Assembly: GCA_029213045.1 (NCBI GenBank)
Contig: JARGPN010000006.1
Span: 168,123-232,122, forward strand
Direction: 5' to 3'
Source of the DNA: Alcanivoracaceae bacterium
GTDB lineage: Bacteria > Pseudomonadota > Gammaproteobacteria > Pseudomonadales > Alcanivoracaceae
DNA length: 64,000 nt
The notes below the pieces were generated by a model. The model was given only the letters and a program-made list of their open reading frames with translations. It did not search any database and was not told the origin of the DNA. The translations under genes were made by a program, and so were the position numbers. This document shows, in pieces, positions 3,828-19,422 of this stretch. The number at the start of each line of letters is the position of its first letter. Position 1 is the first letter of the stretch.

Positions 3828-4127
3828 CTATGGGTACCATGAAAGGCTTGCGGTATGCATTTCAGTTAAGGCGACCAACTGCAAATAATCTATTCGCTTA
3901 ATTGGTAACTGAGGTGTGATCTCGCCATCCCCCAATAGGAAAAGGTTAATCGGCGCAGAAGTATCGCTGAGCGCAATTAATTCTGAAAGCGGAGAGAATT
4001 TCTCTAATGATGTCGCGAAGCCTTGCGCTTGTTCTAGCAAGACCACGTCGTCTCCAGCGTCTATTCGTTTTAACGCTTCTGGAAGTATCTTTGTGTTGTC
4101 TGGAGGAAGGGCAACAAGATGCAGCAT
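3828..4127 (-). CDS. tusB: sulfurtransferase complex subunit TusB/DsrH
   Basis: 99 aa. It is the third gene of a DsrE/F/H-type triplet, with matching size and order. Confidence 0.7.
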   Translation of the reverse strand: MLHLVALPPDNTKILPEALKRIDAGDDVVLLEQAQGFATSLEKFSPLSELIALSDTSAPINLFLLGDGEITPQLPIKRIDYLQLVALTEMHTASLSWYP

Positions 4128-4134
4128 AAAGACC

Positions 4135-4461
4135 TCAAATATTCACAGCGTGCTTGGCTAATTTTGAGAGTGCTTTCAGAGCGTGGTCGGAAATTGCTCG
4201 GCAGGGAATGCGCGTATTCGTCATGTCGAGATTTGCGCCGTTCAGTGATGTGGTGTCGACATAGATGTCTGAAACACCAAAGCTGGGGAGCATGTCTAGT
4301 AAATCCTCGTCACCCTCTACCTTGTTTAATTGAGGAATCGCTGCGCCGCTAAATACCAATGATAGCGGCAGGCCAAACGCTGCGAGCATAGCGAGCATAT
4401 CCTGCTGCTCACGAGCGACATGTTCAATGCTTGGGTCTCGACAAAGGTTAATTAAAATCAT
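4135..4461 (-). CDS. tusC: sulfurtransferase complex subunit TusC/DsrF
   Basis: 108 aa. It is the middle gene of the tusDCB-like triplet. Confidence 0.7.
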   Translation of the reverse strand: MILINLCRDPSIEHVAREQQDMLAMLAAFGLPLSLVFSGAAIPQLNKVEGDEDLLDMLPSFGVSDIYVDTTSLNGANLDMTNTRIPCRAISDHALKALSKLAKHAVNI

Positions 4462-4472
4462 GCGATTCTCAT

Positions 4473-4847
4473 TTAGCCGAAGCTCAACAAACGCTGGCTT
4501 TGAGTGAGTGCGTCAGCGAATTGTCCTAGCCCTGAAACTTCGAAACCGGGCGCGATCTGTTCAAACGTCGCATCGCTGGCGCGGGATTCTGCGTCACTGA
4601 CAATGCCTCGGCGCACGGCGGCGGTAATGCATACCACTGCATCAAGTCGCTGCATTTCCACAAAAGACTGCCAGCGTCTGGTGAGAGAAGAGGGGTTGGA
4701 CGTTTTTTGCGCAAGAAGCACGCCCGACTGATAGAAGAAAAGCCGGAAGATGGAATGGCCGGTGGAGTGGAGCGCTTGTGCAAACTCTAGTGCCGTTTCT
4801 GCACTTTGGCTCTCGGGGCCACCATTGATGAGCAAGGTGTACTGCAT
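4473..4847 (-). CDS. tusD: sulfurtransferase TusD/DsrE
   Basis: 124 aa with a DsrE fold and the conserved Cys context (VVCITAAVRRG). Confidence 0.8.
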   Translation of the reverse strand: MQYTLLINGGPESQSAETALEFAQALHSTGHSIFRLFFYQSGVLLAQKTSNPSSLTRRWQSFVEMQRLDAVVCITAAVRRGIVSDAESRASDATFEQIAPGFEVSGLGQFADALTQSQRLLSFG

Positions 4848-5118: not shown

Positions 5119-5416
5119 TTTCTGAACTCCTCATATGTCCTCTTATTCAGCCAATTGAATCTAAGCCCCGCCAAATTAAAGCGTCGCTTTGCGTTGCTTA
5201 GGCGCAACGGTTAAACAATGCCCCTAGTAAACAATGGCCTATGGCTTACACGATCTAATGCTGCCCGCGCACAGGGCTGCCGCGGTATCATATTAGTCTG
5301 GCACCCTTCAATTCAGGGGGGCCGGCGAGTATTCTGGCTCAATAGGTTGTGAAAGGGCCTGAGCACGCTAAACAGGTTGTGTGGGTGTTCAAGGACGAAG
5401 GTCTGGAGATAATAAA

Positions 5417-6079
5417 ATGATCAAGATAATGGTGGTGGATGATCATGATCTGGTGCGCACAGGCATCAGTCGCATGCTTGCCGACGTGAACGGCATTGAC
5501 GTCATCGGTGAGGCGTCGAGTGGTGAAGACGCGGTACAAATGGCACGTGAGCTAGAGCCTGATGTGGTGTTGATGGATGTTAAAATGCCGGGCATGGGCG
5601 GCTTGGAAGCGACCAAGAAAATGCTGCGTCATGATGATGGTGTGCGCGTTATCGCGGTGACTGTTTGTGAAGAAGAGCCATTTCCCTCGCGCTTATTAAA
5701 AGCGGGAGCGTGCGGCTATCTCACAAAAGGCGCCGATTTAGATGAAATGTTGCGCGCGATTAAGATTGTCCATGCCGGTCAGCGCTACATCAGCCCGCAA
5801 ATTGCTCAGGCTATGGCGTTAAAGCCGTTTAACACCGCTGAGTCTGCACCGATGGAGTTGCTCTCCGAGCGAGAGCTGCAAATAATGATGATGATTGTGA
5901 ACTGTCATAAGGTGCAGGACATTTCAGACAAGCTTTGCCTGTCTCCAAAAACGGTTAACACTTACCGTTATCGGATTTTCGATAAGCTCGGCATTACTAG
6001 CGACGTTGAAATGACGGTGTTAGCGATGCGTTGGGGCATGGTCGACGACACCGCCGGTGCGACGGCAAGCGTTGTGTGA
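5417..6079 (+). CDS. gacA: GacA/UvrY-type response regulator (REC plus LuxR-type HTH)
   Basis: MIKIMVVDDHDLVR..., receiver Asp (VLMDVKMPGMGG) and a C-terminal LuxR HTH (LSERELQIMMMI...LSPKTVNTYR). It sits immediately upstream of uvrC, as in Pseudomonas and E. coli. I prefer the ATG at 5417 over the ORF-track start at 5381. Confidence 0.85.
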   Translation: MIKIMVVDDHDLVRTGISRMLADVNGIDVIGEASSGEDAVQMARELEPDVVLMDVKMPGMGGLEATKKMLRHDDGVRVIAVTVCEEEPFPSRLLKAGACGYLTKGADLDEMLRAIKIVHAGQRYISPQIAQAMALKPFNTAESAPMELLSERELQIMMMIVNCHKVQDISDKLCLSPKTVNTYRYRIFDKLGITSDVEMTVLAMRWGMVDDTAGATASVV

Positions 6080-6104
6080 CCAGTTGTCTGCGTAAGCACG
6101 AAAA

Positions 6105-6147
6105 AGAGTATTTAAAAGGGGGCGATAAGCCCCTTTTTTAATACTCT
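6105..6147. terminator. long hairpin / bidirectional terminator after gacA
   Basis: Near-perfect inverted repeat AGAGTATTTAAAAGGGG...CCCCTTTTTTAATACTCT. Confidence 0.55.
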
Positions 6148-6270
6148 TTATTGGGGGAGGCGCATTGTTGTCGAGGTTTGCGTAGGCGTTGCGTGTATAT
6201 ATAAGGGTTATACATGTGAACGGATGCGGTAAACTCACAACGATTTTTTCGCCAGCGCTCGGAGATTTGT

Positions 6271-8115
6271 TTGAGTCAGCAGTCCTCTAGTTCTCAGTTT
6301 GATGCGTCCGCATTCTTAGCGCTATGCAGCACGCATCCTGGTGTTTACCGAATGTATAGCGCCGACGATGAGTTGCTCTACATCGGAAAAGCCCGTGATT
6401 TACGTGCTCGTTTGTCGAGTTATTTCACTACAACGGTAAGCAGTGCTAAAACGAGAGCGCTGGTGGCTCGAATTGCTCGTATCGAAACCACACTCACAGG
6501 CAGTGAGGCGGAAGCATTACTGCTAGAGCAGTCATTAATTAAGCAGCACCTTCCTCCCTATAATATTCTGCTGAGAGACGATAAATCCTATCCTTATATC
6601 CGCATTAGCACCGGTGATAAGTGGCCGCGTATAGCGTTTCATCGTGGTCAGCGTAAATCCGGTTCTCGCTATTTCGGTCCGTATCCGAGCGGTACTAGCG
6701 TCCGTGAAGCCTTGTCGATTTTAGAAAAAGTGTTTCTTTTACGAAATTGCCACGACAGCTACTTTCGAAATCGCACACGTCCGTGTTTGCAGTATGAAAT
6801 TCGTCGCTGCACAGCCCCCTGTGTCAATTTAGTTTCAGAAGAGGGGTATCGCGAGCAAGTCCGCATGGCTATCGATTTTCTGGAGGGGCGAGATCAGAAC
6901 GTTACCGATCTGCTCAGCGTGCAGATGGAGCAGGCCTCAAAAAATCTGGAGTTTGAGAAGGCCGCTGAGCTGCGGGATAGGCTCGGTGCAATACGACACA
7001 TTCAGCAGAAACAGTACGTCGACACAGATCAGGGTGATGTTGATGTTATTGCTGTCGGCATTCGACATGGTTTAACCCTTGTTGAGATGCTCATGATTCG
7101 TGGCGGGAAGGTACTCGGCCATCGAACGATTAAACCTGATGCGCGCGGCGAAGAAGATGAAAAAGAGGTTTTAGGCGCATTTTTATCTGCCTATTACCTC
7201 GGTGATCGTGCGGACCAACAGTGGCCGTCGGAAATTTTGATTGAACATGCGTTGCCGGAAGAAGAAGCGTTGCGCGAAGCAATCAGTCAACGCTTTGCGC
7301 GCAAAGTTAGGATCGCTAGCCGCGTTCGCGGGGAGCGCGCAGCCTGGTTAAGGTTAGCGAAGCAAAACCTCGAGCAAACGTTGCAAGTGCAGCTCATGGC
7401 GCGGGCCAGTTTGCAGAAGCGTTTTGATGATCTTGCCAAGCTGCTTAACGCCGAAAAGCCTATTTATCGTATCGAATGCTTTGATATTAGCCATACGCAG
7501 GGTGAAAAAGCAGTCGCGTCTTGTGTGGTATTCGGTCCTGAGGGCGCGTTAAAAAGCGACTACCGTCGTTTTAACGTGGAGCCAGAGGCTGCCGGCGATG
7601 ACGTCGCTGCCATTGAGGAGGCCGTGCGCCGTCGTTATCAGCGCGTGCAAAAGGAAAATGGACAGCTACCTGATTTGCTTTTGATTGATGGCGGCAAAGG
7701 GCAGGTGGGTCGCGCTAGTCAGGTGATGAAGGAGCTTGGCTTGCATCAGGATGTAGCCGTACTGGGCATAGCCAAAGGTCCAACGCGCAAACCTGGCTTA
7801 GAAATACTGATCGCTGCCGACGGAAAGCAATGGACACCTGAAGGCGATCACCACGGCTTGCACTTACTCCAGCAAATCAGGGATGAAGCCCATAGATTTG
7901 CCATTACAGGGCATAGAGCGCGCCGAGGAAAAGCCCGCAAACAGTCGGCGCTAGAAGAGATTCCCGGCGTTGGGGCTGCGCGGCGCAAGGCATTGCTCGG
8001 TTATTTTGGCGGGCTTGATCAGCTACGCAATGCCTCTTCCGAGCAGATCGCCCGTGTTGACGGAGTAAGTAAAAAGATGGCCGATCAAATCTATGCGTGG
8101 CTGCATGAAGGCTGA
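6271..8115 (+). CDS. uvrC: excinuclease ABC subunit C
   Basis: 614 aa with an N-terminal GIY-YIG domain (GVYRMY...LLYIGKA), a UVR domain and a C-terminal Endo V-like plus (HhH)2 region. TTG start as given in the ORF track. Confidence 0.95.
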   Translation: MSQQSSSSQFDASAFLALCSTHPGVYRMYSADDELLYIGKARDLRARLSSYFTTTVSSAKTRALVARIARIETTLTGSEAEALLLEQSLIKQHLPPYNILLRDDKSYPYIRISTGDKWPRIAFHRGQRKSGSRYFGPYPSGTSVREALSILEKVFLLRNCHDSYFRNRTRPCLQYEIRRCTAPCVNLVSEEGYREQVRMAIDFLEGRDQNVTDLLSVQMEQASKNLEFEKAAELRDRLGAIRHIQQKQYVDTDQGDVDVIAVGIRHGLTLVEMLMIRGGKVLGHRTIKPDARGEEDEKEVLGAFLSAYYLGDRADQQWPSEILIEHALPEEEALREAISQRFARKVRIASRVRGERAAWLRLAKQNLEQTLQVQLMARASLQKRFDDLAKLLNAEKPIYRIECFDISHTQGEKAVASCVVFGPEGALKSDYRRFNVEPEAAGDDVAAIEEAVRRRYQRVQKENGQLPDLLLIDGGKGQVGRASQVMKELGLHQDVAVLGIAKGPTRKPGLEILIAADGKQWTPEGDHHGLHLLQQIRDEAHRFAITGHRARRGKARKQSALEEIPGVGAARRKALLGYFGGLDQLRNASSEQIARVDGVSKKMADQIYAWLHEG

Positions 8116-8218
8116 AAGCGATTAAATTTGTTTTAATCCGCATCAGTTTCACGTTGAGGCGTGAGAAGCGCGCCTCATTTCGCTATACTTCCGCCTTTCG
8201 AGCCAGTAGTAGCATGCC

Positions 8219-8818
8219 ATGACAACTCAAAGCACGCGTTGGACGCTCCCAAACATTATGACATTGGCTCGGCTGTTATCCGTGCCTGTGTTCGTTGCGG
8301 TTTTTTATCTTCCCTACAAATGGGCCGGCCTTGCGGCTGCTATTATTTTCGTTATTGCGGGCATTACGGACGCTCTAGACGGTTACTTGGCTCGCCGCCT
8401 TGGACAAACGAGTCGCTTTGGCGCCTTCCTCGACCCTGTTGCAGACAAGCTTATTGTCGCCGCCGCGCTGGTTATGTTGGTGCAGCAGCACTCGAATATA
8501 TGGCTAACGCTGCCTTCAATTGTAATTATCTCCCGAGAAATTACAGTTTCTGCTCTGCGTGAGTGGATGGCAGAAATCGGCGCTCGTTCTCGTGTTGCCG
8601 TTAGCGGCATCGGCAAAATCAAAACGATCATGCAAATCGCGGCGATTACCGGGCTGCTGGCTAAAAGTCCCGTTATTACGGACACAGGTGACGTGTTGAT
8701 GACGCCATTTTTATGGCTGACCTATGGTTCCTTGTATGTGGCGACGGCGCTAACGTTGTGGTCAATGTTGGTGTATTTGCGCGCAGCGTGGCCTGAGCTG
8801 TGGTCCGTTAGGCGATAA
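8219..8818 (+). CDS. pgsA: CDP-diacylglycerol--glycerol-3-phosphate 3-phosphatidyltransferase
   Basis: 199 aa with the CDP-alcohol phosphatidyltransferase motif (DALDGYLARRLGQTSRFGAFLDPVADK). Confidence 0.9.
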   Translation: MTTQSTRWTLPNIMTLARLLSVPVFVAVFYLPYKWAGLAAAIIFVIAGITDALDGYLARRLGQTSRFGAFLDPVADKLIVAAALVMLVQQHSNIWLTLPSIVIISREITVSALREWMAEIGARSRVAVSGIGKIKTIMQIAAITGLLAKSPVITDTGDVLMTPFLWLTYGSLYVATALTLWSMLVYLRAAWPELWSVRR

Positions 8819-8853
8819 AGCGAGCAATCAGTTCGTCGTTGCTTGTTAACGGC

Positions 8854-8881
8854 TTGACACAAGGGGGGCTGGCGTTAGAAT
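8854..8881 (+). promoter_or_regulatory. candidate sigma70 promoter for the tRNA-Gly/Cys/Leu cluster
   Basis: TTGACA, a 16-nt spacer, then TAGAAT. It lies about 38 nt upstream of tRNA-Gly. Confidence 0.4.
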
Positions 8882-8919
8882 GCCTCTCCGCCGACACAGA
8901 ACACTGGTATCGGCGAATT

Positions 8920-8995
8920 GCGGGAATAGCTCAGTTGGTAGAGCGCAACCTTGCCAAGGTTGAGGTCGCGAGTTCGAACCTCGTTTCCCGCTCCA
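8920..8995 (+). tRNA. tRNA-Gly (anticodon GCC)
   Basis: Acceptor stem GCGGGAA/TTCCCGC, anticodon loop cuUGCCaa read as GCC, and an encoded CCA. Confidence 0.9.
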
Positions 8996-9002
8996 TATTT
9001 TA

Positions 9003-9028
9003 AACCTCGGTTTAACCGAGGTTTTTTA
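9003..9028 (+). terminator. hairpin plus T-run after tRNA-Gly
   Basis: AACCTCGG-ttta-ACCGAGGTT followed by a T6 run. Confidence 0.65.
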
Positions 9029-9115
9029 TTTAAACGTTACTACCAAGGCGTTTAGATAAAGGTTTCAGTATTTGCGTGATCTCACGCAAAAATGCAAACC
9101 GAAGAAAAGTGTTAA

Positions 9116-9189
9116 GGCGCGGTGGCAGAGTGGTTATGCAGCGGACTGCAACTCCGTAAACGCCGGTTCGATTCCGACCCGCGCCTCCA
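9116..9189 (+). tRNA. tRNA-Cys (anticodon GCA)
   Basis: Acceptor stem GGCGCGG/CCGCGCC, anticodon loop acTGCAac and an encoded CCA. Confidence 0.9.
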
Positions 9190-9208
9190 TCTTTAAAAGT
9201 CCTCTGAT

Positions 9209-9295
9209 GCCCGGATGGCGAAATTGGTAGACGCAAGGGACTTAAAATCCCTCGGTGGCAACACCGTGCCGGTTCGATTCCGGCTCCGGGCACCA
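9209..9295 (+). tRNA. tRNA-Leu (anticodon UAA)
   Basis: Acceptor stem GCCCGGA/TCCGGGC, anticodon loop cuTAAaa, long variable arm and an encoded CCA. Confidence 0.9.
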
Positions 9296-9470: not shown

Positions 9471-12400
9471 GTGAAGCTGATGAAATGGTTCGCAGACCTG
9501 TCTGTACGCATCAAAATTCTCTGTATCGCCGGTCTCGGGATTGGCTCTTTTGTCCTGTATTTTTTATACAGCTACTCCGTAGCTGAGAGCAATATCAGAG
9601 ACTTGCAACAGATTGAGCAAAAGGACTTCGGACTGCTTGAGGCCTCCGCGCAAAATAATATCTCCTTATTTTCCGCTCGTGATGCCTTGGCTCGAGCAAT
9701 CACTTCTGGTGATACAGACGCGTTAGGCGATGCCAATCGGTTAGCCAGCCAAGCGGTGTTAAACATGGAGGCAATGACGGAGGTCGATCCGTCATTGCGT
9801 GCTGAAGTGGATGAATTAACTGAAGCATTTCGTGCCTACTTTGACGCTGGGACCACCCTTGCCAATGATCAAATCGCAGGGAAGTTGAACGATTCCAATT
9901 TTTATGATCGATTGAATGAAGTCGCGCAGCTACGTGACGAATTCGAACAGATGCAGGAAGACTTCCAAGAAGCCCGCTACCAATCTTTTTATGATCGATT
10001 AAGCACCAGCCGGAATAATACTAAAAACGCACGTTGGGTTGGCGGCGTGGTGGTGTCTTGCGCATTACTGTTGCTCTCGTTTATCACGTTGCGGGTGACG
10101 CGCAGTATCGTTAAGCCATTGGGCTATGCGGTCGAGGTCGCGGGAAATATTGCAGACGGTGACTGGGATCGCGACATCGAAGTTAAGACGCGCGATGAAA
10201 CCGGTCGTTTGCTTAATGCAATTCGTCAAATGCGCGATGCGCTTAAGTCTCAGCGTGACACAGATCAGCGTGAAGAGCGGAAAAAGAACCGTATTGCTGA
10301 TTTAAATGAGCGCATGCGTGGCGACATGAGTTTGCAGCAACTTGGCAACAACATGCTTACCTATTTGGTGCCAGCGCTAGATGCGCAAGTAGGCGCTTTT
10401 TATATTTTTGACTCGGAATCACAAAAGCTAAAACTTAGCAGCTCCTATGCCATGCAGCGTCGCCGTAATTTGGCGAATGAGTTTGCTCTGGGTGAATCAT
10501 TGGTGGGGCAGGCGGGGCTTGAGAAGAAGCAAATTATGCTACAACAAGTTCCAGAAGATTATGTTCTGATTTCCTCTGCTACGGGCTCTTCAGTCCCCAA
10601 AAGTATCGTTGTCACTCCGATTATTCACGATGATGAATTAAAAGGCATATTGGAGATAGGCGCATTTCGTGTTTTCGAGCGAGACGATATGGAGATGCTT
10701 GAAGAGGGGGTGCGCACTGTCGCAGTAGCGGTTCATACCGCCGAGAGTCGCGTGCGATTGGCGGAAATGCTGTCGCAAACACAGCAGCAGGCTGACGCAC
10801 TAGAAACGCAGAAGTCCGAGCTCAGCGCCGTCAATGATGATCTTGAAGAACAAGCGATGGAGCTGGCCGCGTCGGAATCACGCTTGCAGCAACAACAAGA
10901 AGAGCTGCGTGCGATTAACGAAGAGTTAGAAGCCCAAGCGCATGCGCTGAGAGCATCTGAGGAAGGACTTCAGGCGCAGCAAGAAGAGTTGCGTGTCACT
11001 AACGAAGAGCTTGAAGCGCAGGCTAATTTGTTGGCTGAGCAAAAGTCCGAAATGTCTCAGAAGAACAAAGAGCTGGAGCTGCTTAAGCACGAGCTGGAAG
11101 AAAAGATTAAAGAGCTGGAACTGTCGTCTAAATACAAGTCTGAATTCCTATCCACCATGTCGCATGAGCTGCGCACGCCGCTAAACAGTATTCTGATTTT
11201 GTCTAACGCGCTGGCACAAAATAAGAAGGGCAACCTTGAAGAGAAGCAGATAGAGCATGCGCAGGTTATTCACGGTGCGGGCTCTGATTTGTTATCACTG
11301 ATTAACGACATTCTCGATATTTCAAAAATTGAAGAAGGCAAAATGGATATCATCATTGATGATATTCCAGTGATTGATTTGGCGGATCATTTCCGTAAGC
11401 ACTTCGCCCACATCGCAGAGAATCGTGGCCTTTTCTTCAAAGTAGAAGTTGCCGAAGGCTTGCCTGCTAGTCTTTATACCGATCGCCAGAGAATGGAGCA
11501 GGTTCTTAAGAATCTTCTCTCGAATGCCATGAAGTTTACGGAGAATGGCGGCGTCACTCTGCGTGTGGATATGCCGTCCGCTGATGACATCCCCGGACGT
11601 ACTTTAGAGGCTGGCAAAACGATGCGCATTTCGGTAATTGATACCGGGATTGGCATCGCTAAAGACAAGCAGAAACTGGTGTTTGAAGCTTTTCAGCAGG
11701 CGGATGGTACGACTAGCCGTAAATATGGTGGCACTGGGCTCGGACTGACTATCTCTCGTGAGTTAGCGCGCTTGTTAGGCGGTGAGCTGGGGATGTCCAG
11801 TGACGGCGCCGGCTTGGGCTGTAGCTTTATGCTGTATCTGCCTATCGGCCATGTGTCGCAGGTTTATCAAGAAGAAGGCACTGATGAATCAACGCCCGCG
11901 TTAGCCTCATTTGAAGAGAGCATTGCTGCCGCCGCAAAATCGGCCGGTGTAGAGGATGGATTTGTCGTACGCGAAAAAGCCGTCCTCATTATTGAGGACG
12001 ACGGAGACTTTGCGTCGGTACTTACAGAGCTCGCGGAAGATTATGGACTCGAGGGCCATGTATGTTCAGATGGCGAAAGTGGCCTTGAGTACGCACGAAC
12101 ATATCGTCCAAGTGCAATTATTTTAGACATTGGTTTGCCTGGCATGGACGGCTGGGAGGTGATGGACAAACTGAAGGCGGATGCCCGTACGAAAGACATT
12201 CCGGTGCATTTCCTTTCTGGAAAAGATGAACGAAAGAAAGCGATGTCCTTAGGGGCAATTGATTTTCTGACTAAGCCGGTCAATACAGATCAAATGTCCA
12301 GTGCCTTCGAGAAAATCGAAAAGGCCATAGAAAAGAACGTGCGGCGCATGTTGGTCGTTGAAGACAGTGAAATTCAACACGAAAGTATTCGGGAACTGTT

Positions 12401-13145
12401 TGATCAAAAAGGTGTGCAAATCACGTCCGTGCATACCGGTGGGGAAGCACTTGTTGCACTTCGAGATCATGTCTTTGATTGCATGATCCTAGATTTAACT
12501 TTGCCAGATATGACTGGATTCGAGTTGCTTGAAAGCATTCACGGCAACGACAATTACGACTCGGTTCCGGTAATTATCTACACTGGCAAAGAACTTAGTC
12601 GTGACGAAGAAGCTAAGCTAAGAAAATACGCAGACCGTATCATCTTGAAAACAGAGCGCTCTTCCGAGCGGCTTCTGAATGAAGCATCGCTATTTTTACA
12701 CTGGTTGGAAACAACGCTGCCCAACAACAGCAAGGGCATTCAAGATGCCATCGAACATAGGGATGATGTGTTCGAAGGTAAGTCATTGTTGTTGGTTGAT
12801 GACGATATGCGAAATATTTATGCGCTGTCAGCTCAACTAGAGGAATTAGGGTTTGCCATCACCGTCGCTAACAATGGCCGCGAAGCCTTGGAAGCGCTGG
12901 ATGAAAACCCTGAGCTGGATATTGTTCTGATGGACATCATGATGCCAGAAATGGATGGCTATGAAGCGATGTCGAAAATCCGCGAACAAAGTCGTTTTCA
13001 GAAGCTTCCAATATTGGCGCTTACCGCGAAGGCGATGAAGGATGATCGCGCTAAGTGTATCGAAGCTGGCGCAAACGACTATTGCTCGAAGCCAATTGAA
13101 ATGGGCAAGCTAACATCGCTAATGCGTGTTTGGCTGCATAAATAA
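9471..13145 (+). CDS. hybrid sensor histidine kinase: TM, helical periplasmic sensor, TM, HAMP, GAF, coiled coil, HisKA, HATPase_c and three REC domains
   Basis: 1224 aa with two hydrophobic segments. Motifs seen: HAMP (IVKPLGYAVEVAGNIADGD), GAF (VGAFYIFDSESQKLKL...GILEIGAF), H-box (SHELRTPLN), G-box (GGTGLGLTISRELARLLGG) and three receivers with DD...D...K patterns. The start is GTG at 9471 or ATG at 9480. Confidence 0.9.
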   Translation: MKLMKWFADLSVRIKILCIAGLGIGSFVLYFLYSYSVAESNIRDLQQIEQKDFGLLEASAQNNISLFSARDALARAITSGDTDALGDANRLASQAVLNMEAMTEVDPSLRAEVDELTEAFRAYFDAGTTLANDQIAGKLNDSNFYDRLNEVAQLRDEFEQMQEDFQEARYQSFYDRLSTSRNNTKNARWVGGVVVSCALLLLSFITLRVTRSIVKPLGYAVEVAGNIADGDWDRDIEVKTRDETGRLLNAIRQMRDALKSQRDTDQREERKKNRIADLNERMRGDMSLQQLGNNMLTYLVPALDAQVGAFYIFDSESQKLKLSSSYAMQRRRNLANEFALGESLVGQAGLEKKQIMLQQVPEDYVLISSATGSSVPKSIVVTPIIHDDELKGILEIGAFRVFERDDMEMLEEGVRTVAVAVHTAESRVRLAEMLSQTQQQADALETQKSELSAVNDDLEEQAMELAASESRLQQQQEELRAINEELEAQAHALRASEEGLQAQQEELRVTNEELEAQANLLAEQKSEMSQKNKELELLKHELEEKIKELELSSKYKSEFLSTMSHELRTPLNSILILSNALAQNKKGNLEEKQIEHAQVIHGAGSDLLSLINDILDISKIEEGKMDIIIDDIPVIDLADHFRKHFAHIAENRGLFFKVEVAEGLPASLYTDRQRMEQVLKNLLSNAMKFTENGGVTLRVDMPSADDIPGRTLEAGKTMRISVIDTGIGIAKDKQKLVFEAFQQADGTTSRKYGGTGLGLTISRELARLLGGELGMSSDGAGLGCSFMLYLPIGHVSQVYQEEGTDESTPALASFEESIAAAAKSAGVEDGFVVREKAVLIIEDDGDFASVLTELAEDYGLEGHVCSDGESGLEYARTYRPSAIILDIGLPGMDGWEVMDKLKADARTKDIPVHFLSGKDERKKAMSLGAIDFLTKPVNTDQMSSAFEKIEKAIEKNVRRMLVVEDSEIQHESIRELFDQKGVQITSVHTGGEALVALRDHVFDCMILDLTLPDMTGFELLESIHGNDNYDSVPVIIYTGKELSRDEEAKLRKYADRIILKTERSSERLLNEASLFLHWLETTLPNNSKGIQDAIEHRDDVFEGKSLLLVDDDMRNIYALSAQLEELGFAITVANNGREALEALDENPELDIVLMDIMMPEMDGYEAMSKIREQSRFQKLPILALTAKAMKDDRAKCIEAGANDYCSKPIEMGKLTSLMRVWLHK
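10809..11144 (+). repeat. four in-register 84-nt (28-residue) coding repeats in the kinase coiled coil
   Basis: The four units are QKSELSAVNDDLEEQAMELAASESRLQQ, QQEELRAINEELEAQAHALRASEEGLQA, QQEELRVTNEELEAQANLLAEQKSEMSQ and KNKELELLKHELEEKIKELELSSKYKSE. Positions 4, 5, 11, 12, 13 and 19 are conserved. Confidence 0.7.
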
Positions 13146-13154
13146 GGTCAGCGA

Positions 13155-14012
13155 ATGCAGCAAGAGCCGGAAATTACAGACGACGACGTCAATATCGAGG
13201 AGATCGAGATCCGCCTTCTTTTAGAGGCGATTTACTCGATGTACGGATATGATTTTCGGCGCTACAGCAAAGCTTCTATTCGTCGCCGAGTGCTGCATCG
13301 TTTAGGGCTTTCTGGATTTGGCAATATTATGCAAATGACAGACAAAGTTCTGCGAGACCGGCAGTTTTTTGTCGAGCTGCTAAATGACCTTACAGTTAAT
13401 GTCACCGAAATGTTTCGTGATCCAATGTTCTATCGGCGCTTTAGGGAAGAAGTTGTACCAGTACTAAAAACGTTTCCGTTCATAAAAATTTGGCATGCGG
13501 GCTGTTCAACAGGTGAAGAGATTTACAGCATGGCCGTCTTGCTCGAAGAGGAAGGTTTATACGAGCGGACCATGATGTATGCGACAGATATTGATAAGAA
13601 TGTTCTGGCTACGGCCAAGAAGGGAATTTATTCAATTGCCGCAATTAAGCAATACAGTGATAACTATATTCAGGCCGGCGGCAAGTCCTCTCTGTCTGAT
13701 TATTACACCTGTAAGTACGAAAGCGTCATTATGGATCAGGGGTTGAAACGGAACATCGTTTTTGCAGACCACGATCTCGCAACAGATCAAGTGTTTGGTG
13801 AGATGAACGTTATCGTTTGCCGAAATGTATTGATCTATTTTGATCGTCAATTACAAGAACGTGTATTTAACCTTTTCAGAGATAGTCTTGATTTGGGCGG
13901 ATATCTTTGCCTTGGTACAAAAGAAAGCCTCAAGTTTGCTGACGCAGATCATGGCTTTGAGCCCGTAGACGCGGAAATGAAAATATTTAGACGTAAGCAG
14001 GTGTCCCTGTGA
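13155..14012 (+). CDS. CheR-type protein-glutamate O-methyltransferase
   Basis: 285 aa with a CheR N-terminal helical domain and a SAM-binding motif (IWHAGCSTGEEIYSMAVLL, VIVCRNVLIYF). It starts 9 nt after the kinase stop. Confidence 0.85.
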   Translation: MQQEPEITDDDVNIEEIEIRLLLEAIYSMYGYDFRRYSKASIRRRVLHRLGLSGFGNIMQMTDKVLRDRQFFVELLNDLTVNVTEMFRDPMFYRRFREEVVPVLKTFPFIKIWHAGCSTGEEIYSMAVLLEEEGLYERTMMYATDIDKNVLATAKKGIYSIAAIKQYSDNYIQAGGKSSLSDYYTCKYESVIMDQGLKRNIVFADHDLATDQVFGEMNVIVCRNVLIYFDRQLQERVFNLFRDSLDLGGYLCLGTKESLKFADADHGFEPVDAEMKIFRRKQVSL

Positions 14013-14485
14013 ATGATGAAGTGATTATCCAGAATGTACTTCTGGTGGATGATCAGCCCGCCAATCTAGTTTCGCTTGAGGCGATTCTAGAGGCGGACAA
14101 TCGCGTGTTGATTAAAGCGAACTCAGGGCAGGAAGGCCTAAAAGTTTTGCTTAAAGAAGATGTATCCCTTGTGCTGCTCGACGTACAGATGCCAGGCATG
14201 GATGGTTTCGAAATGGCAGAGCTAATGCGGGCGCGGAAAGACACGCAAACAATCCCGATTATCTTTGTTACCGCTATCAGCAAAGAAAAGCAGTATGTGT
14301 TTAAAGGTTATCAAGTTGGTGCAGTAGATTATTTATTTAAGCCGTTGGATCCTGTGATTCTGCAGTCAAAAGTAAATTTCTTTTTGCAGCTGGATCGCCA
14401 ACGCCGCGAGTTGCAGTTGAAATTAAAGCAAGCGCAAGCGCATCGGGCTGCATATGAAGCAGCCAAACACAAAGACAAGAAGTAA
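14009..14485 (+). CDS. stand-alone response regulator receiver with a short C-terminal helix
   Basis: 158 aa with LLVDDQPANL, LLDVQMPGMDG and YLFKP. The GTG start overlaps the CheR stop (GTGA). Confidence 0.85.
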   Translation: MNDEVIIQNVLLVDDQPANLVSLEAILEADNRVLIKANSGQEGLKVLLKEDVSLVLLDVQMPGMDGFEMAELMRARKDTQTIPIIFVTAISKEKQYVFKGYQVGAVDYLFKPLDPVILQSKVNFFLQLDRQRRELQLKLKQAQAHRAAYEAAKHKDKK

Positions 14486-14491
14486 GTTGAT

Positions 14492-15082
14492 ATGGTGACG
14501 CGCCCGCTACGCATCAAGATTGTTGTGGTTGGCGCTTCTTGGGGCGGGATAGAAGCGGCGACTCAGATTTTCTCGGCATTGCCTGAGACGTTGCCTGTTC
14601 CCGTAGTGCTGGTTCAGCACCAGCGCATTTCGGTGCACAATCGCCTCGCAAAACTGTTTGAAACGAAAGCTAAGTTAAAAGTGGTGGCGCCAGAGCAGGG
14701 CGAGCTACTTGAGTCAGGGCGCTTGTACGTAGCGCCGCCTGGCTATCACACGATGATCGATGAGGGCGGTCACATTGCACTCGGCCTACATAGGCCCGTA
14801 CTGTATTGTCGTCCCGCGATTGATGAGCTTTTTTTTTCCGCGGGCCAAATATATGGTCGCAGCACGTTGGCAGTGTTGCTGACGGGGGCAAATGAAGATG
14901 GCGCAGCAGGTATGCGCTATATAAAACAACGCGGCGGCATGACCGTCGTACAAGATCCGGCAACGGCGGAAGCGCCTGTGATGCCGGAATCTGCGATAAA
15001 AATGGGTGGGGTTCAGCACGTTGTGCCGTTGGCAAACATGGCTGATTTTATTTGTGAGCAAGTGTTCGGTCTGCAGGAATGA
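14492..15082 (+). CDS. CheB-type methylesterase catalytic domain without a receiver
   Basis: 196 aa. Candidate catalytic residues are retained (GASWGG, VLVQHQ, TGANEDGAAG). It starts 6 nt after the preceding stop and in the same frame. Confidence 0.85.
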   Translation: MVTRPLRIKIVVVGASWGGIEAATQIFSALPETLPVPVVLVQHQRISVHNRLAKLFETKAKLKVVAPEQGELLESGRLYVAPPGYHTMIDEGGHIALGLHRPVLYCRPAIDELFFSAGQIYGRSTLAVLLTGANEDGAAGMRYIKQRGGMTVVQDPATAEAPVMPESAIKMGGVQHVVPLANMADFICEQVFGLQE

Positions 15083-16224
15083 TTAAACAAAGTATTCTCA
15101 TAGTGGATGATCATCGCGAGAATCTAATAGCGCTAGAAGCGATATTGGAGGATCCGAGCCGAAATTTAATTATGGCGTCGTCAGGGAATGAGGCGTTGCA
15201 GCTAGCGCTCAAGTACGACATCTCGCTGGTCTTGCTCGACGTTCAAATGCCGGAAATGGATGGCTTTGAAGTTGCTACGCTAATGCGTAATGGCAGAAAA
15301 ACGCGAAATGTGCCTATTATTTTCGTCACCGCAATTTCAAAAGATAGCGCCTATGTTTTCAAGGGATATGAGTGTGGCGCTGTTGATTATCTCTTTAAGC
15401 CCATCGACCAACAGATTCTGACGGCGAAAGTTGAACTGTTTCTTGAAATGGATATGCAGAAACGCAAACTGCAACAAGCCGTTGTGCAGATGAAGCGCTT
15501 AAAAGATGAGAACGAGCGTTTGTTGCGCGCAATGGGTGAGTGTGTCCTCGGCACTGACGATAAAGGTATGATCACATTCTGCAACGATGCGGCGGGATAT
15601 TTGTTCGGTCAGGAGCGCGAAGCGCTGATGGGGCAGGCGGTTGATAATTTGCTGTTCCGCGATGAAGAGCAAACTCTCCGCTGGACCTTCGCCGAGTCTC
15701 CGGTGGCGGCCAATTGCAGCTCCGGTCGTTCATGGCGCAGCGCTCAGCCGATGTTTGTGCACGGTAGCGGCGATGTGAAGTCAGTATCTGTATCGGCTAA
15801 TTCCGTGAATTTGCCCGGCGAGAACTTTTCTGGCGTTGTGATGGTCGTAAGAGATATCACTGATCAGCACGAACTCTCTGCGGAGCAGTCAGCGCGAGAA
15901 GGGCGCCGGTTCTCTCGCAAGAAAATGTTCAAAGAGATGGTGTTATTTGATCGCGGTACCGGAAGCAATATTGGTCGATTACTGAACATCAGTGTCGATG
16001 GATTTAAGCTTTTTACCCGACAAGAGCTTCAAGACGGCACTAAGTTTCAGCTAAGTGTGGTATTGCCAGAGCAGATATATGGCGTCAATACTCTGAGCTT
16101 CAACGCTCGCAATGTTTGGTCTGAAGCGCAGGACGAGCCAGGCGCCTATCACGCCGGCTTCCAGTTTGTGGATCTGAGCGATACTAATAAAAATATAATT
16201 AAAGCGCTTTTGGAGAAGTACTGA
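15079..16224 (+). CDS. response regulator with REC, PAS and PilZ domains
   Basis: 381 aa. REC ([20 protein letters not shown]), PAS-like ([25 protein letters not shown]) and C-terminal PilZ motifs RRFSR (RxxxR) and NISVDG (D/NxSxxG). The ATG overlaps the CheB stop (ATGA). Confidence 0.8.
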
Positions 16225-16226
16225 TT

Positions 16227-17741
16227 ATGGAGTTGCCAGCATTAGAGCAGGACGCTGAGCTGGATCAGCATATCGTCGTAGGACCGGAGCTTTTGCCATA
16301 TGGCTTTGCTCGCAGACATGGGGTGCTGCTGCGCAAAACTGATTCAGGAAACGAGCTCTGCTTTCGCAGCCCGCTGTCTATGCAAGTCCTTGCGGAAATT
16401 CGCCGCAATTTTTCTGTATCTGGCGCGCCTAAGAATCTTAGTGACGAAGAATTTACCTCCGTGCTCGCACTGACCTATGAGCAGCAGCGCGGTGCGGCAG
16501 CAGAAGCTGCCGACAACCTTGATGGCTTAGACCTCTCATCGCTCGCTGACGCGATGCCAGAAACCTCCGACTTGCTCGAACAAGAAGATGATGCGCCGAT
16601 TATTCGTTTGATCAACGCGTTGCTGCAAGAAGCTATCCGTGAGAATGCCTCCGATATTCACATTGAAACGTTTGAGCGTCGTTTGGTCGTTCGATTGCGT
16701 GTTGATGGTGTGTTACGCGAAGTGCTAACGCCTCGTCGTGAGTTAGCGCCATTACTCGTGTCCCGCATTAAAGTGATGGCGCGTTTGGATATCGCTGAAA
16801 AACGTCTTCCGCAAGATGGTCGTATTTCTTTGCGATTAGGCGGACGTGATGTCGATGTACGTGTATCGACAATGCCATCTAGCAACGGTGAGCGAGTGGT
16901 GCTGCGTTTGCTGGATAAGCAAGCAGGGCGATTGCAGCTTTCCCATCTTGGTATGGGCGCCGATACGCACAAATTAATGTACGAACTTATTCACAAACCG
17001 CATGGCATTATTCTCGTCACTGGCCCGACCGGTTCTGGTAAAACAACCACCTTGTATGCATCGTTGGCAGATTTAAACGACGCAACGCGAAATATTCTCA
17101 CCGTCGAAGATCCTATCGAATATCAGCTAGAAGGCATTGGTCAAACGCAAGTTAGCACTAAAGTTGATATGACATTTGCCCGCGGCTTACGCGCTATTTT
17201 GCGTCAGGATCCTGACGTTGTGATGGTTGGTGAGATTCGAGATTTAGAAACCGCTGAGATTTCTGTTCAGGCCTCATTAACCGGCCACTTGGTGCTTTCA
17301 ACATTGCACACCAACAGTGCGGTTGGCGCGGTCACGCGTTTGCAAGACATGGGCATCGAGCCGTTTTTGTTATCCTCAAGTTTGCTCGGCGTATTGGCGC
17401 AGCGATTGGTGCGCGTCCTCTGCAAGGAATGTAAAGAAGCGCATCCGGCGACAGAAAGTGAGCTGGAAATGATGGGGGTGCCGAACTCAGGCAACCAAGT
17501 TTATCGTCCTGTTGGATGTAGTCACTGTAACAACTCTGGTTATCGCGGTCGTACGGGTATTTATGAATTAGTGGTAATTACCGAGACCATGCGTGAACTT
17601 ATTCATGATCGCGCTTCTGAGCAGTCACTCGATCGAGAAGCTCGTGCATTGACGCCAAATATTCGCACAGACGGTTGGCGTAAAGTCTTGGCGGGTGACA
17701 CCAGTATTGAAGAAGTGCTTCGCGTTACCCGCGAAGGCTAA
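16227..17741 (+). CDS. gspE: type II secretion ATPase GspE
   Basis: 504 aa with N1 domain [13 protein letters not shown], Walker [10 protein letters not shown], Asp box and a tetracysteine motif (CKEC...CSHC). Confidence 0.92.
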
Positions 17742-17756
17742 TCAGGTTGATAGTTC

Positions 17757-18980
17757 ATGCCCGCGTTTGAATATCGCTCGCTCGATCATCGAGGCAAAGT
17801 CCGTAAAGGTGTGCTGGAAGCTGACAGTGCGCGTTTAGTGCGCCAGCAACTGCGCGAAAAGGGCTGGGTGCCTATTGAAGTAGGCGAAGCCAGCGATAAA
17901 AAGCAAAGCACCAACTTGATGGAAGGAATGTCCTCACGAGGGCGCCTTAAATCTGCTGAGCAGGCGTTGATAACACGCCAGTTGGCAACATTAATTCGGT
18001 CTGGTTTGCCTATCGAGCATGCGTTATCCGCAGTGGCGCGCCAATCCGGAAAAGATCGTGTTGAGCGCATCATTTTGGCCGTACGAGCTAAGGTGCTTGA
18101 AGGACATAGCTTGGCAAACAGCCTCGGTGAATTCCCGAAAGCATTTCCCGAAATGTACCGAGCTACGGTGGCGGCCGGTGAATCCAGCGGTCATTTAGAG
18201 CAAGTGCTCGATCAACTCGCAGAATATTTAGAAACCCGTCATGACACCGGTCGCTCGATCACACAAGCGATGGTGTATCCCATATTTATTATTCTTTTTT
18301 CGGTGTTGGTGATTAGCTTTCTGATGACCTACGTAGTGCCGAAAATGGTTGAGGTATTTGAAGGGCGTGGCCAAACACTGCCGATGCTAACCCAAGTCAT
18401 GATCAGCGTGAGTCATTTTTTCAGAGATTGGATGTGGCTAGTGCTGCTTATCGGCGTTGTCGGAAGCGTTTTGTTTACGCGCGCATTACGCGAACCTGCC
18501 TTTAGAATGCGCGTGCACAGAAAGTTGGCGACATTCCCGATGATCGGCACGTTATTGCGAGCTGGCGAGAGTGCACGATTAGCCAGTACCTTGGGTATTC
18601 TCGGCCGCAGTGGTGTGCCCTTGGTCGAAGCGTTAGGCATTTCAGAGCAAGTGATTGGAAATCTCGCGATTCGTGATGCGCTCAAGCAAGCGGCCAATCG
18701 CGTGCGCGAAGGCGGAAGCTTGAGCAAAGCACTGGAGCGAAGTGGTTATTTCCCGCCAATGTTGGTGCAAATGATCGCAAGCGGTGAGGCGAGCGGCGAT
18801 TTAGATCAAATGTTGACGCGCGCTGCGGATTATCAAGAACGAGATTTAAATAATACGGTTACCACGATGGTCGGTTTACTCGGACCATTAATGTTATTGC
18901 TGATGGCTGGCATTGTGGTGTTAGTGGTGCTGTCGGTTGTGCTGCCGATGCTCGACATGAATGCCATCTTTAATCGATAG
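17757..18980 (+). CDS. gspF: type II secretion inner-membrane platform protein GspF
   Basis: 407 aa with duplicated T2SSF domains, three TM segments and N-terminus MPAFEYRSLD. Confidence 0.92.
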   Translation: MPAFEYRSLDHRGKVRKGVLEADSARLVRQQLREKGWVPIEVGEASDKKQSTNLMEGMSSRGRLKSAEQALITRQLATLIRSGLPIEHALSAVARQSGKDRVERIILAVRAKVLEGHSLANSLGEFPKAFPEMYRATVAAGESSGHLEQVLDQLAEYLETRHDTGRSITQAMVYPIFIILFSVLVISFLMTYVVPKMVEVFEGRGQTLPMLTQVMISVSHFFRDWMWLVLLIGVVGSVLFTRALREPAFRMRVHRKLATFPMIGTLLRAGESARLASTLGILGRSGVPLVEALGISEQVIGNLAIRDALKQAANRVREGGSLSKALERSGYFPPMLVQMIASGEASGDLDQMLTRAADYQERDLNNTVTTMVGLLGPLMLLLMAGIVVLVVLSVVLPMLDMNAIFNR

Positions 18981-18990
18981 GGAGATAGAA

Positions 18991-19422
18991 ATGAATAAGA
19001 TCAAGGCCGCAGGGCGTCAATCAGGTTTTACCCTGCTGGAAATCATGGTCGTTGTGACGATCTTGGGTTTGCTTGCAGCATTTATTGTGCCGAATGTTAT
19101 TGGGCAGGGTGATAAAGCGAAAGTTGACCTAGCGAAAGCCAATATGAGTGGCGTGGCAAATGCGCTGGATTTTTATAAGCTCGACAACAAAAAGTATCCC
19201 ACAACAGAACAAGGGCTGGACGCGTTAACGACAAAGCCAGAAGGCGCGAAAAACTGGAACCCGAATGGCTACCTACCTAAATTGCCAGAAGATCCTTGGG
19301 GTAACACGTATGTGTATATCAGCCCCGGTATCGACGGTAAACCCTATGACCTTTACTCCTTAGGTGCGGACGGCGTAGAGGGTGGCGAGGGATTTGATGC
19401 CGATCTCAATTTCCGCGACTAA
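18991..19422 (+). CDS. gspG: major pseudopilin GspG
   Basis: Prepilin leader and cleavage motif (QSGFTLLEIMVV) and a conserved GspG core (DPWGNTYVYISPG...YSLGADG). I prefer the ATG at 18991 over 18961. Confidence 0.9.
   Translation: MNKIKAAGRQSGFTLLEIMVVVTILGLLAAFIVPNVIGQGDKAKVDLAKANMSGVANALDFYKLDNKKYPTTEQGLDALTTKPEGAKNWNPNGYLPKLPEDPWGNTYVYISPGIDGKPYDLYSLGADGVEGGEGFDADLNFRD

Follow-up and report, generated by a model that had tools for sequence, protein, structure and literature searches.

Reversible glutamate methylation is the textbook mechanism of adaptation in chemoreceptors. The methylation helices of methyl-accepting chemotaxis proteins (MCPs) such as Tar and Tsr carry Glu-Glu pairs on the exposed face of a long coiled coil, and neutralization of their charge is thought to alter packing. 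RsbK of Bacillus cereus is a kinase with the order CHASE3-HAMP-GAF-signaling helix (S-helix)-histidine kinase (HK)-receiver (REC), and its S-helix is methylated by the CheR-type enzyme RsbM, whose gene belongs to the rsbK operon (PMC4574943). This methylation, together with an inhibitory receiver domain, keeps the kinase off; 127 RsbK-like kinases have been counted in 10 phyla, and B. cereus has no paired esterase (PMC4574943, PMC9912610, PMC10950880). In Pseudomonas, according to Lee et al. (2016) as cited in PMC8175716, the bmsABCD cluster encodes the CHASE3/GAF hybrid kinase BmsA and, after it, CheR, CheB and a hybrid HK. We found no report of BmsA methylation in the literature. The idea of a methylatable S-helix is already known (RsbK/RsbM, 2012-2015), and the locus analyzed here, a hybrid sensor histidine kinase gene and the genes downstream of it in a 64,000-nucleotide stretch of the Alcanivoracaceae contig JARGPN010000006.1 (the window), belongs to the RsbK/RsbM and Bms kind. 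Specific to the window are three repeat modules in the linker of the kinase, a CheB with an inserted REC gene, a PilZ output and adjoining type II secretion genes.

Judging from its sequence and its homologues, the linker between the GAF domain and the H-box of this kinase is a plausible candidate for a methyl-accepting segment. The explanation that we favor, with somewhat better than even confidence, is that the segment is the S-helix of an RsbK/BmsA-type hybrid kinase whose Glu-Glu (EE) pairs are methylated by CheR and demethylated by CheB. Nucleotides 10809-11144 on the forward strand translate into four in-register 28-residue units, residues 447-558 of the open reading frame at 9471-13145, and these are identical to the units quoted in a sequence-only reading of the window. 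Unit 1 (QKSELSAVNDDLEEQAMELAASESRLQQ; 10809-10892, residues 447-474) is a degenerate copy with DD in place of EE. Unit 2 (QQEELRAINEELEAQAHALRASEEGLQA; 10893-10976, residues 475-502) and unit 3 (QQEELRVTNEELEAQANLLAEQKSEMSQ; 10977-11060, residues 503-530) each hold two EE pairs at heptad positions b and c, E477/E478 (10899-10904) and E484/E485 (10920-10925) in the former, E505/E506 (10983-10988; 60 and 59 residues before the phospho-accepting His565, i.e., His-60/-59) and E512/E513 (11004-11009) in the latter. Unit 4 (11061-11144, residues 531-558) has KE and HE, with no EE at b and c, and is the DHp-proximal segment that is common to the whole family regardless of an adjacent CheR. Identity is 15 of 28 residues between units 1 and 2 as well as between units 2 and 3, and 12 of 28 between units 1 and 3; unit 4, a weak repeat copy, matches the others at 7-8 of 28. 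The Glu/Gln pairs that had been proposed are thus present as EE in units 2 and 3 only, and a Gln-Glu pair is absent from the b/c positions, as the Gln residues of QQEEL stand at g and a. Nor do the repeats end five residues before the H-box, as had been stated; the units abut it (E558/F559), and His565 lies seven residues past the last one.

An exact period of four heptads had also been claimed, and this was borne out. Within the linker (residues 433-565), self-similarity peaks at lag 28 with 0.36 identity, a value matched by none of 20,000 residue shuffles and by 12 of 20,000 shuffles that preserve heptad position. Self-similarity is raised at all multiples of 7, with lag 14 (0.34) close behind, which makes the segment a heptad coiled coil on which a super-period of four heptads is superimposed. 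Such values might also arise if the periodicity were a compositional accident of a low-complexity helix rich in Glu and Leu, which would fit both the near-equality of lags 14 and 28 and the lack of any tandem DNA repeat according to Tandem Repeats Finder (TRF). The shuffling results speak against this, as do the conservation of the motifs across phyla and the homologous linkers that step by whole 28-residue modules (115, 143 and 171 residues), and we consider an accident hardly credible. At the DNA level, units 2 and 3 match at 38 of their first 48 nucleotides and at 12 of the other 36, which is chance level, so that the near-identity ascribed to them applies to the first part alone, and the same codon is used at 8 of the 15 residues identical between them. 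Because the DNA match is partial, codon sharing is limited and TRF finds no repeat, we conclude that the duplication is old and held at the protein level. Pfam and NCBIfam contain no model for the linker, which matched solely spurious eukaryotic coiled-coil families at E > 0.01.

The heptad register, a check that the sequence-only reading had asked for, is uninterrupted. Counting upstream from His565, heptads 2-19 all have Leu or Met at d except for one Thr at heptad 18, the a positions of the linker cycle through Asn, Ala, Glu and Gln, and the EE pairs stand at b and c of heptads 7, 8, 11 and 12, with Leu at d. AlphaFold2, run as a monomer model from a 33-homologue alignment, predicts strands in the GAF region followed by a C-terminal helix, and a single continuous alpha-helix at residues 404-583 (10680-11219, forward strand; residues 125-304 of the modeled segment), which starts at the GAF end, covers the entire linker and continues into DHp helix 1, His565 included. 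The block-mean predicted local distance difference test score of this helix is at least 88 up to about residue 520. Measured between the last GAF strand and the His, the linkers of 62 homologues are 115, 122, 129, 136, 143, 150, 157 or 171 residues long, with one at 116, and hence differ by whole heptads, the one at 116 being off by one residue. The values 115, 143 and 171 read as one, two and three 28-residue modules before the invariant DHp-proximal segment. At 171 residues the window linker is the longest sampled, with two extra 28-residue modules compared to the shortest members. A continuous heptad coiled coil from sensor to DHp, with lengths in heptad steps, is what defines an S-helix, and the window kinase has one.

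More than 5700 homologues match the GAF-linker-DHp region at E <=1e-10, and the consensus of an H-box-anchored stack of 118 homologues includes QQEELxxxNEELEEKAxLLxEQN. A scan of GTDB representative genomes gave 80 homologous loci in Bacillota, Cyanobacteria, Actinomycetota, Bacteroidota, Gemmatimonadota, Proteobacteria and other phyla, in which adjacency of CheR and CheB was determined by tblastn with the two window proteins. CheR follows the kinase directly in 31 of the 80 loci, and CheB is directly next in 20 of these 31, while the Bacillota (RsbK-type) loci have CheR without CheB. A further 44 loci were classified as CheR-less, having neither gene within 10 kb and enough downstream sequence. 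Both groups conserve the coiled coil, which is universal in the family. We scored heptads with a strict E-E-(L/M/I/V) at b, c and d (EE-L heptads) in 74 loci, 30 CheR-linked and 44 unlinked, and found averages per kinase of 3.6 in loci with both CheR and CheB, 2.7 where CheR stands without CheB and 0.89 where both are missing. Runs of at least two consecutive EE-L heptads occur in 25 of the 30 linked and 6 of the 44 unlinked loci (Fisher p = 1.6e-9). The difference persists when the loci are clustered at 70, 60 and 50% identity (p ~0.007-0.02), and EE heptads also differ within the class with short N-termini (3.7 vs 1.4, p = 3e-4) and within the multi-HAMP class with long N-termini (p = 0.03). 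The contrast is seen even between near-identical cyanobacterial linkers, with QQEEL...NEEL in Microcoleus, which has both CheR and CheB, and QQDEL...NAEL in Nostoc, which has neither. The sequence-only reading had named equal conservation of the repeats in kinases without CheR/CheB as grounds for abandoning its proposal; this was found for the coiled coil, but not for the EE pairs.

At heptads 7 and 8, the CheR-less homologues (loci L003-L080) mostly keep the second Glu, at c, and replace the first, at b (QQKEL, NAEL, QQDEL). The CheR-specific feature is therefore the first Glu of the pair. In CheR-linked kinases the context of the pair is rich in Gln, with the pattern (g)Q-(a)Q/N/S-E-E-L-(e)Q/R/E. 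Additionally, b/c pairs that contain Gln (QE or EQ) number 0.09 per kinase in loci with CheR only and 0.64 in loci with CheR and CheB (L001-L080), which are small numbers. More Gln pairs in the presence of CheB would fit the need of Gln-encoded sites for the deamidase activity of CheB, and is suggestive in this respect.

The genes that follow the kinase encode both enzymes. CheR, a protein-glutamate O-methyltransferase with the Pfam domains CheR_N and CheR, is encoded on the forward strand at 13155-14012, 9 nucleotides past the kinase stop, just as the methyltransferase gene lies directly downstream of rsbK in its operon. Among solved structures it is closest to B. subtilis CheR (5FTW, E 8e-33), and the motifs that bind S-adenosylmethionine are aligned and conserved between the two. 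The adjacent CheRs in the 31 loci are 33-53% identical to the window CheR, mostly 43-53%; those beside Bacillota RsbK-type kinases (L001, L035 and L074-L076) are 47-50% identical to it, compared to 33-53% in the 26 other loci. The window CheR thus falls in the CheR clade that goes with these kinases. A stand-alone receiver protein of 158 residues, recognized by Pfam, is encoded at 14009-14485 (forward strand), overlapping the cheR stop by 4 nucleotides, and after a 6-nucleotide gap cheB follows at 14492-15082 on the same strand. The CheB protein (196 residues; CheB_methylest, E 3.8e-53) consists of the catalytic domain only, without a receiver, and in alignment it shares with 1CHD the motif residues Ser (GASWGG), His (VQHQ) and Asp (NEDGAAG). 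We take these three residues to be the catalytic triad.

The kinase itself (9471-13145, forward strand; ORF list and Pfam) comprises 1224 residues from a GTG start. The locus is also found on 23 metagenome contigs, on which gene callers start the kinase at the ATG at 9480, giving 1221 residues. A transmembrane (TM)/helical sensor is followed by HAMP, GAF, the coiled-coil linker, HisKA, HATPase and three REC domains, which is the sensor-TM-HAMP-GAF-S-helix-HisKA-HATPase-REC order of RsbK. Pfam places HAMP at residues 209-259, GAF, the input end of the linker helix, at 286-422 (10326-10736, forward strand; GAF_2, E 1.2e-13), HisKA at 556-623 and HATPase at 671-792. Three Response_reg stretches cover residues ~836-1221 (11973-13133, forward strand), and each of these receivers has the DD...D...T/S...K signature. 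His565 of the H-box (11163-11165, forward strand) was assigned from the HisKA match and the H-box-anchored alignment of 118 homologues. The N-terminal 217 residues gave a weak TarH-like match (E 0.023); neither CHASE3 nor 4HB_MCP was detected in the sensor, and both are named sensors in homologues (CHASE3 in L026, 4HB_MCP in L001). RsbK differs in its single receiver and short linker (L076, the Metabacillus homologue, has 115 residues), where the window kinase has three receivers and 171 residues, and in the lack of a paired methylesterase in B. cereus, where the window operon encodes CheB. The outputs differ as well. RsbK acts through RsbY (REC-PP2C) and sigma-B, whereas the window kinase has REC and REC-PAS-PilZ proteins as neighbors, and no genes for PP2C, RsbV/W or a sigma factor were found in the cluster, so that an RsbY/sigma-B output is absent from it.

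RsbK-type kinases also have (S/Q/N)-E-E-L heptads before the His, in the same register as the window kinase. RsbK homologues have been listed for Paenibacillus, Priestia, Lysinibacillus and other genera, and the Bacillota loci in our sample are among them. Of 120 Bacillaceae RsbK-type kinases, i.e., the best 120 homologue matches, mainly from Metabacillus and Neobacillus, 119 have EE at both His-67/-66 and His-60/-59, and the last has EA/EE, so that EE at His-60/-59 is found in all 120. Read via these homologues and the protein P0296, which shares RsbK numbering (H505, N625, D827), the two positions are E438/E439 and E445/E446 of RsbK; in P0296, TEEL and SEEL have E439 and E446, respectively, as their second Glu. 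According to Chen et al. (2012), E439 is reportedly the preferred methylation site of RsbK and E446 a minor one. If this is correct, the modified residues would be exactly the c-position Glu of consecutive x-E-E-L heptads. The window kinase has E498/G499 at His-67/-66 and E505/E506 at His-60/-59, with additional EE pairs in heptads 7, 11 and 12.

The likeness of units 2 and 3 to MCP methylation helices, which the sequence-only reading had drawn, holds in part. The EE pairs are 7 residues apart on the exposed face of a coiled coil, and CheR and CheB are encoded alongside. However, the kinase has no MCPsignal match in Pfam and no hairpin, its linker is presumably a parallel two-helix zipper and not an antiparallel four-helix bundle, and its output is its own HisKA/HATPase and not CheA. 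The MCP consensus, searched as [ASTG]2xx[EQ]2xx[ASTG]2 or E-E-x-x-A-S/T, has no match in the whole kinase, and a semi-strict version also gave none; only the relaxed EELEAQ is found, at residues 484 and 512. The kinase therefore resembles MCPs in function and geometry without being a member of their family.

The absence of this consensus would be expected if the linker were a plain structural, signal-transmitting S-helix in which the E/Q/L heptads tune stability, with CheR and CheB acting on a distant MCP or on another protein of the cluster. The heptad-quantized linker with its conserved end recurs in thousands of GAF kinases, including the 44 assessable loci without CheR, and the retention of the c-position Glu in CheR-less homologues points the same way. 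Against this stands that the first Glu and the runs of EE heptads follow the presence of CheR, that the HK-CheR gene pair is kept across phyla, and that the homologous RsbK is methylated on the same helix (PMC4574943). Moreover, Pfam finds no MCP, CheA or CheW gene in the cluster, and the MCP hairpin motif is absent from all six frames of the 64 kb window. We regard a purely structural role as rather unlikely. Methylation of the EE pairs by the adjacent CheR and their demethylation by CheB, as the sequence-only reading had proposed, is partly supported, by the RsbK/RsbM precedent, by the cross-phylum HK-CheR(-CheB) synteny and by the association between EE and CheR; of the four units, however, only two hold candidate sites.

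Several points weigh against this favored explanation. Many homologues without CheR within 10 kb keep the coiled coil as well as a QQ-x-E-L / N-x-E-L core. Since 6 CheR-less loci have EE runs, EE heptads are not exclusive to kinases with a CheR partner. The EE/CheR statistics are affected by the phylogenetic non-independence of the loci, and the absence of CheR within 10 kb is compatible with a CheR elsewhere in the genome. The residue equivalent to RsbK E439 at His-66 is Gly499 in the window kinase, and the MCP consensus is missing. Deletion of cheR and cheB in the Pseudomonas bms cluster reportedly gave no biofilm phenotype (Lee et al., 2016). Finally, the methylation of the kinase, the residues modified and the effect on output are what we infer from the comparisons above.

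The window shares with the Bms cluster a GAF-containing proteobacterial hybrid kinase that has three receivers, and genes for CheR and a catalytic-only CheB come after it. Two homologous loci, L026 from P. viridiflava and L064 from Alteromonadales, have the layout HK-CheR-CheB-REC/HK, with linkers homologous to that of the window. The window differs in that no CHASE3 was detected in its sensor, that the 158-residue REC gene is inserted between cheR and cheB, and that its fourth gene type encodes a REC-PAS-PilZ protein (15079-16224, forward strand; Pfam; 4-nucleotide overlap with the cheB stop) where L026 and L064 have REC-HisKA-HATPase. The REC-PAS-PilZ protein is presumed to be the output or partner response regulator. 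Both REC domains downstream of the window kinase resemble the REC of REC-HisKA-HATPase, the fourth Bms-type gene; the two receivers (14009-14485 and 15079-15500) are closest to that of the REC-HisKA-HATPase protein 'EpsF' (NF041880; E 3e-41 and 1e-40). The kinase half of an EpsF-type protein seems to have been lost outright from one copy and to have given way to PAS-PilZ in the other.

With three receivers in the kinase and three units of the EE/DD type in its linker, the units might instead serve mainly to dock the kinase's own receivers or the stand-alone REC proteins, unit number matching receiver number and methylation being secondary or absent. The RsbK receiver does interact in part with the S-helix, and more strongly when RsbM is co-expressed (PMC4574943). 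L026 and L064 also have three REC domains, yet the L064 linker is 136 residues long versus 171 in the window, and L026 has two 28-residue units only. Docking would also leave unexplained why EE pairs follow CheR adjacency, and it is compatible with methylation and not an alternative to it. We find docking as the main role of the units improbable.

Under the favored explanation of reversible methylation, the linker would form a parallel dimeric leucine zipper that is marginally stable, with Leu at d and Asn, Ala, Glu or Gln at a, and would relay signals from the sensor, HAMP and GAF to the DHp His. The (Q/N)-E-E-L heptads of units 2 and 3 would expose Glu-Glu pairs to solvent on the b/c face at intervals of 7 residues. 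CheR, which would be co-transcribed with the kinase together with CheB, may then methylate the second (c) Glu of each pair, i.e., E478, E485, E506 and E513, and the catalytic-only CheB may reverse this. Charge neutralization would change the packing or rotation of the helix and the docking of an inhibitory receiver, as proposed for RsbK, and the altered packing and docking could reset kinase or phosphotransfer output toward the neighboring REC and REC-PAS-PilZ proteins.

A similar motif is found outside of kinases. The sequence-only reading had pointed to EEL repeats in fused CheB-CheR-PAS kinases, and our peptide search confirmed them; many CheB/CheR fusion proteins (their JGI name) have tandem NEELQST heptads between CheR and PAS_10. 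On two contigs the order is CheB, CheR, the NEELQST peptide and PAS_10, and these fusion genes (L085:969-3142 and L086:3225-6273) are fragmented by assembly frameshifts. The fusion heptads share the a-d pattern (N/Q, E, E, L) with units 2 and 3, with a best alignment of 41% identity over 44 ungapped residues, but have a period of 7 and lie right after the CheR domain of the same polypeptide. This stretch may act as a docking helix or be modified as a self-substrate. We found no experimental work on CheB/CheR fusions in the literature. A special CheR clade shared with the fusions was considered and dropped, as the fusion CheR domain is 29% identical to the window CheR.

A broader combination of these ideas, which we hold only tentatively and think unlikely as a whole, is that the kinase bears a complete MCP-like adaptation module without MCP, CheA and CheW. 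In this combination, the 28-residue modules might be units of 'methylation memory' whose copy number, 1-3 in the family and 3 in this kinase, determines how many sites there are, and (Q/N)-E-E-L might be a general non-MCP substrate motif common to the CheB/CheR fusions. CheR, the stand-alone REC and the REC-less CheB could form an integral-feedback loop, with the kinase phosphorylating a REC that controls CheB, and the adapted output might pass via REC-PAS-PilZ to the type II secretion ATPase encoded 2 nucleotides downstream.

Downstream of the signaling genes, gspE starts 2 nucleotides past the stop of the REC-PAS-PilZ gene, and gspE-F-G-H-I-J-K-L-M lie on the same strand, with neither gspC nor gspD in front of gspE; counted from the REC-PAS-PilZ gene, this stretch covers 15079-19422 and, by analogy with L081, extends to ~23900. 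Given the 2-nucleotide spacing, the signaling cluster appears to be fused to the type II secretion operon, and the PilZ protein may regulate the secretion ATPase, possibly with cyclic di-GMP. Immediately upstream of the kinase, the block at 5381-9295 holds a gacA/uvrY-like response regulator, uvrC, pgsA, tRNA-Gly(GCC), tRNA-Cys(GCA) and tRNA-Leu(TAA), a conserved gammaproteobacterial gene order, with a strong sigma-70-like promoter match (11/12) at 8854-8881 before the tRNAs. On the reverse strand at 3828-4847, three small consecutive open reading frames encode 124, 108 and 99 residues, the first with a DsrE/TusD-type domain, and probably constitute an ordinary-looking, tusDCB-like sulfur-relay operon.

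The window itself is a variant example and adds no new principle. For ordinary two-component kinases, methylation is documented for one system only, the esterase-less RsbK/RsbM. Runs of x-E-E-L on the b/c face of the GAF-to-DHp helix, arranged in 28-residue modules, are a signature that accompanies an adjacent CheR, often with CheB, in many phyla. This signature offers residues to mutate as well as a sequence-based prediction of methyl-regulated kinases.

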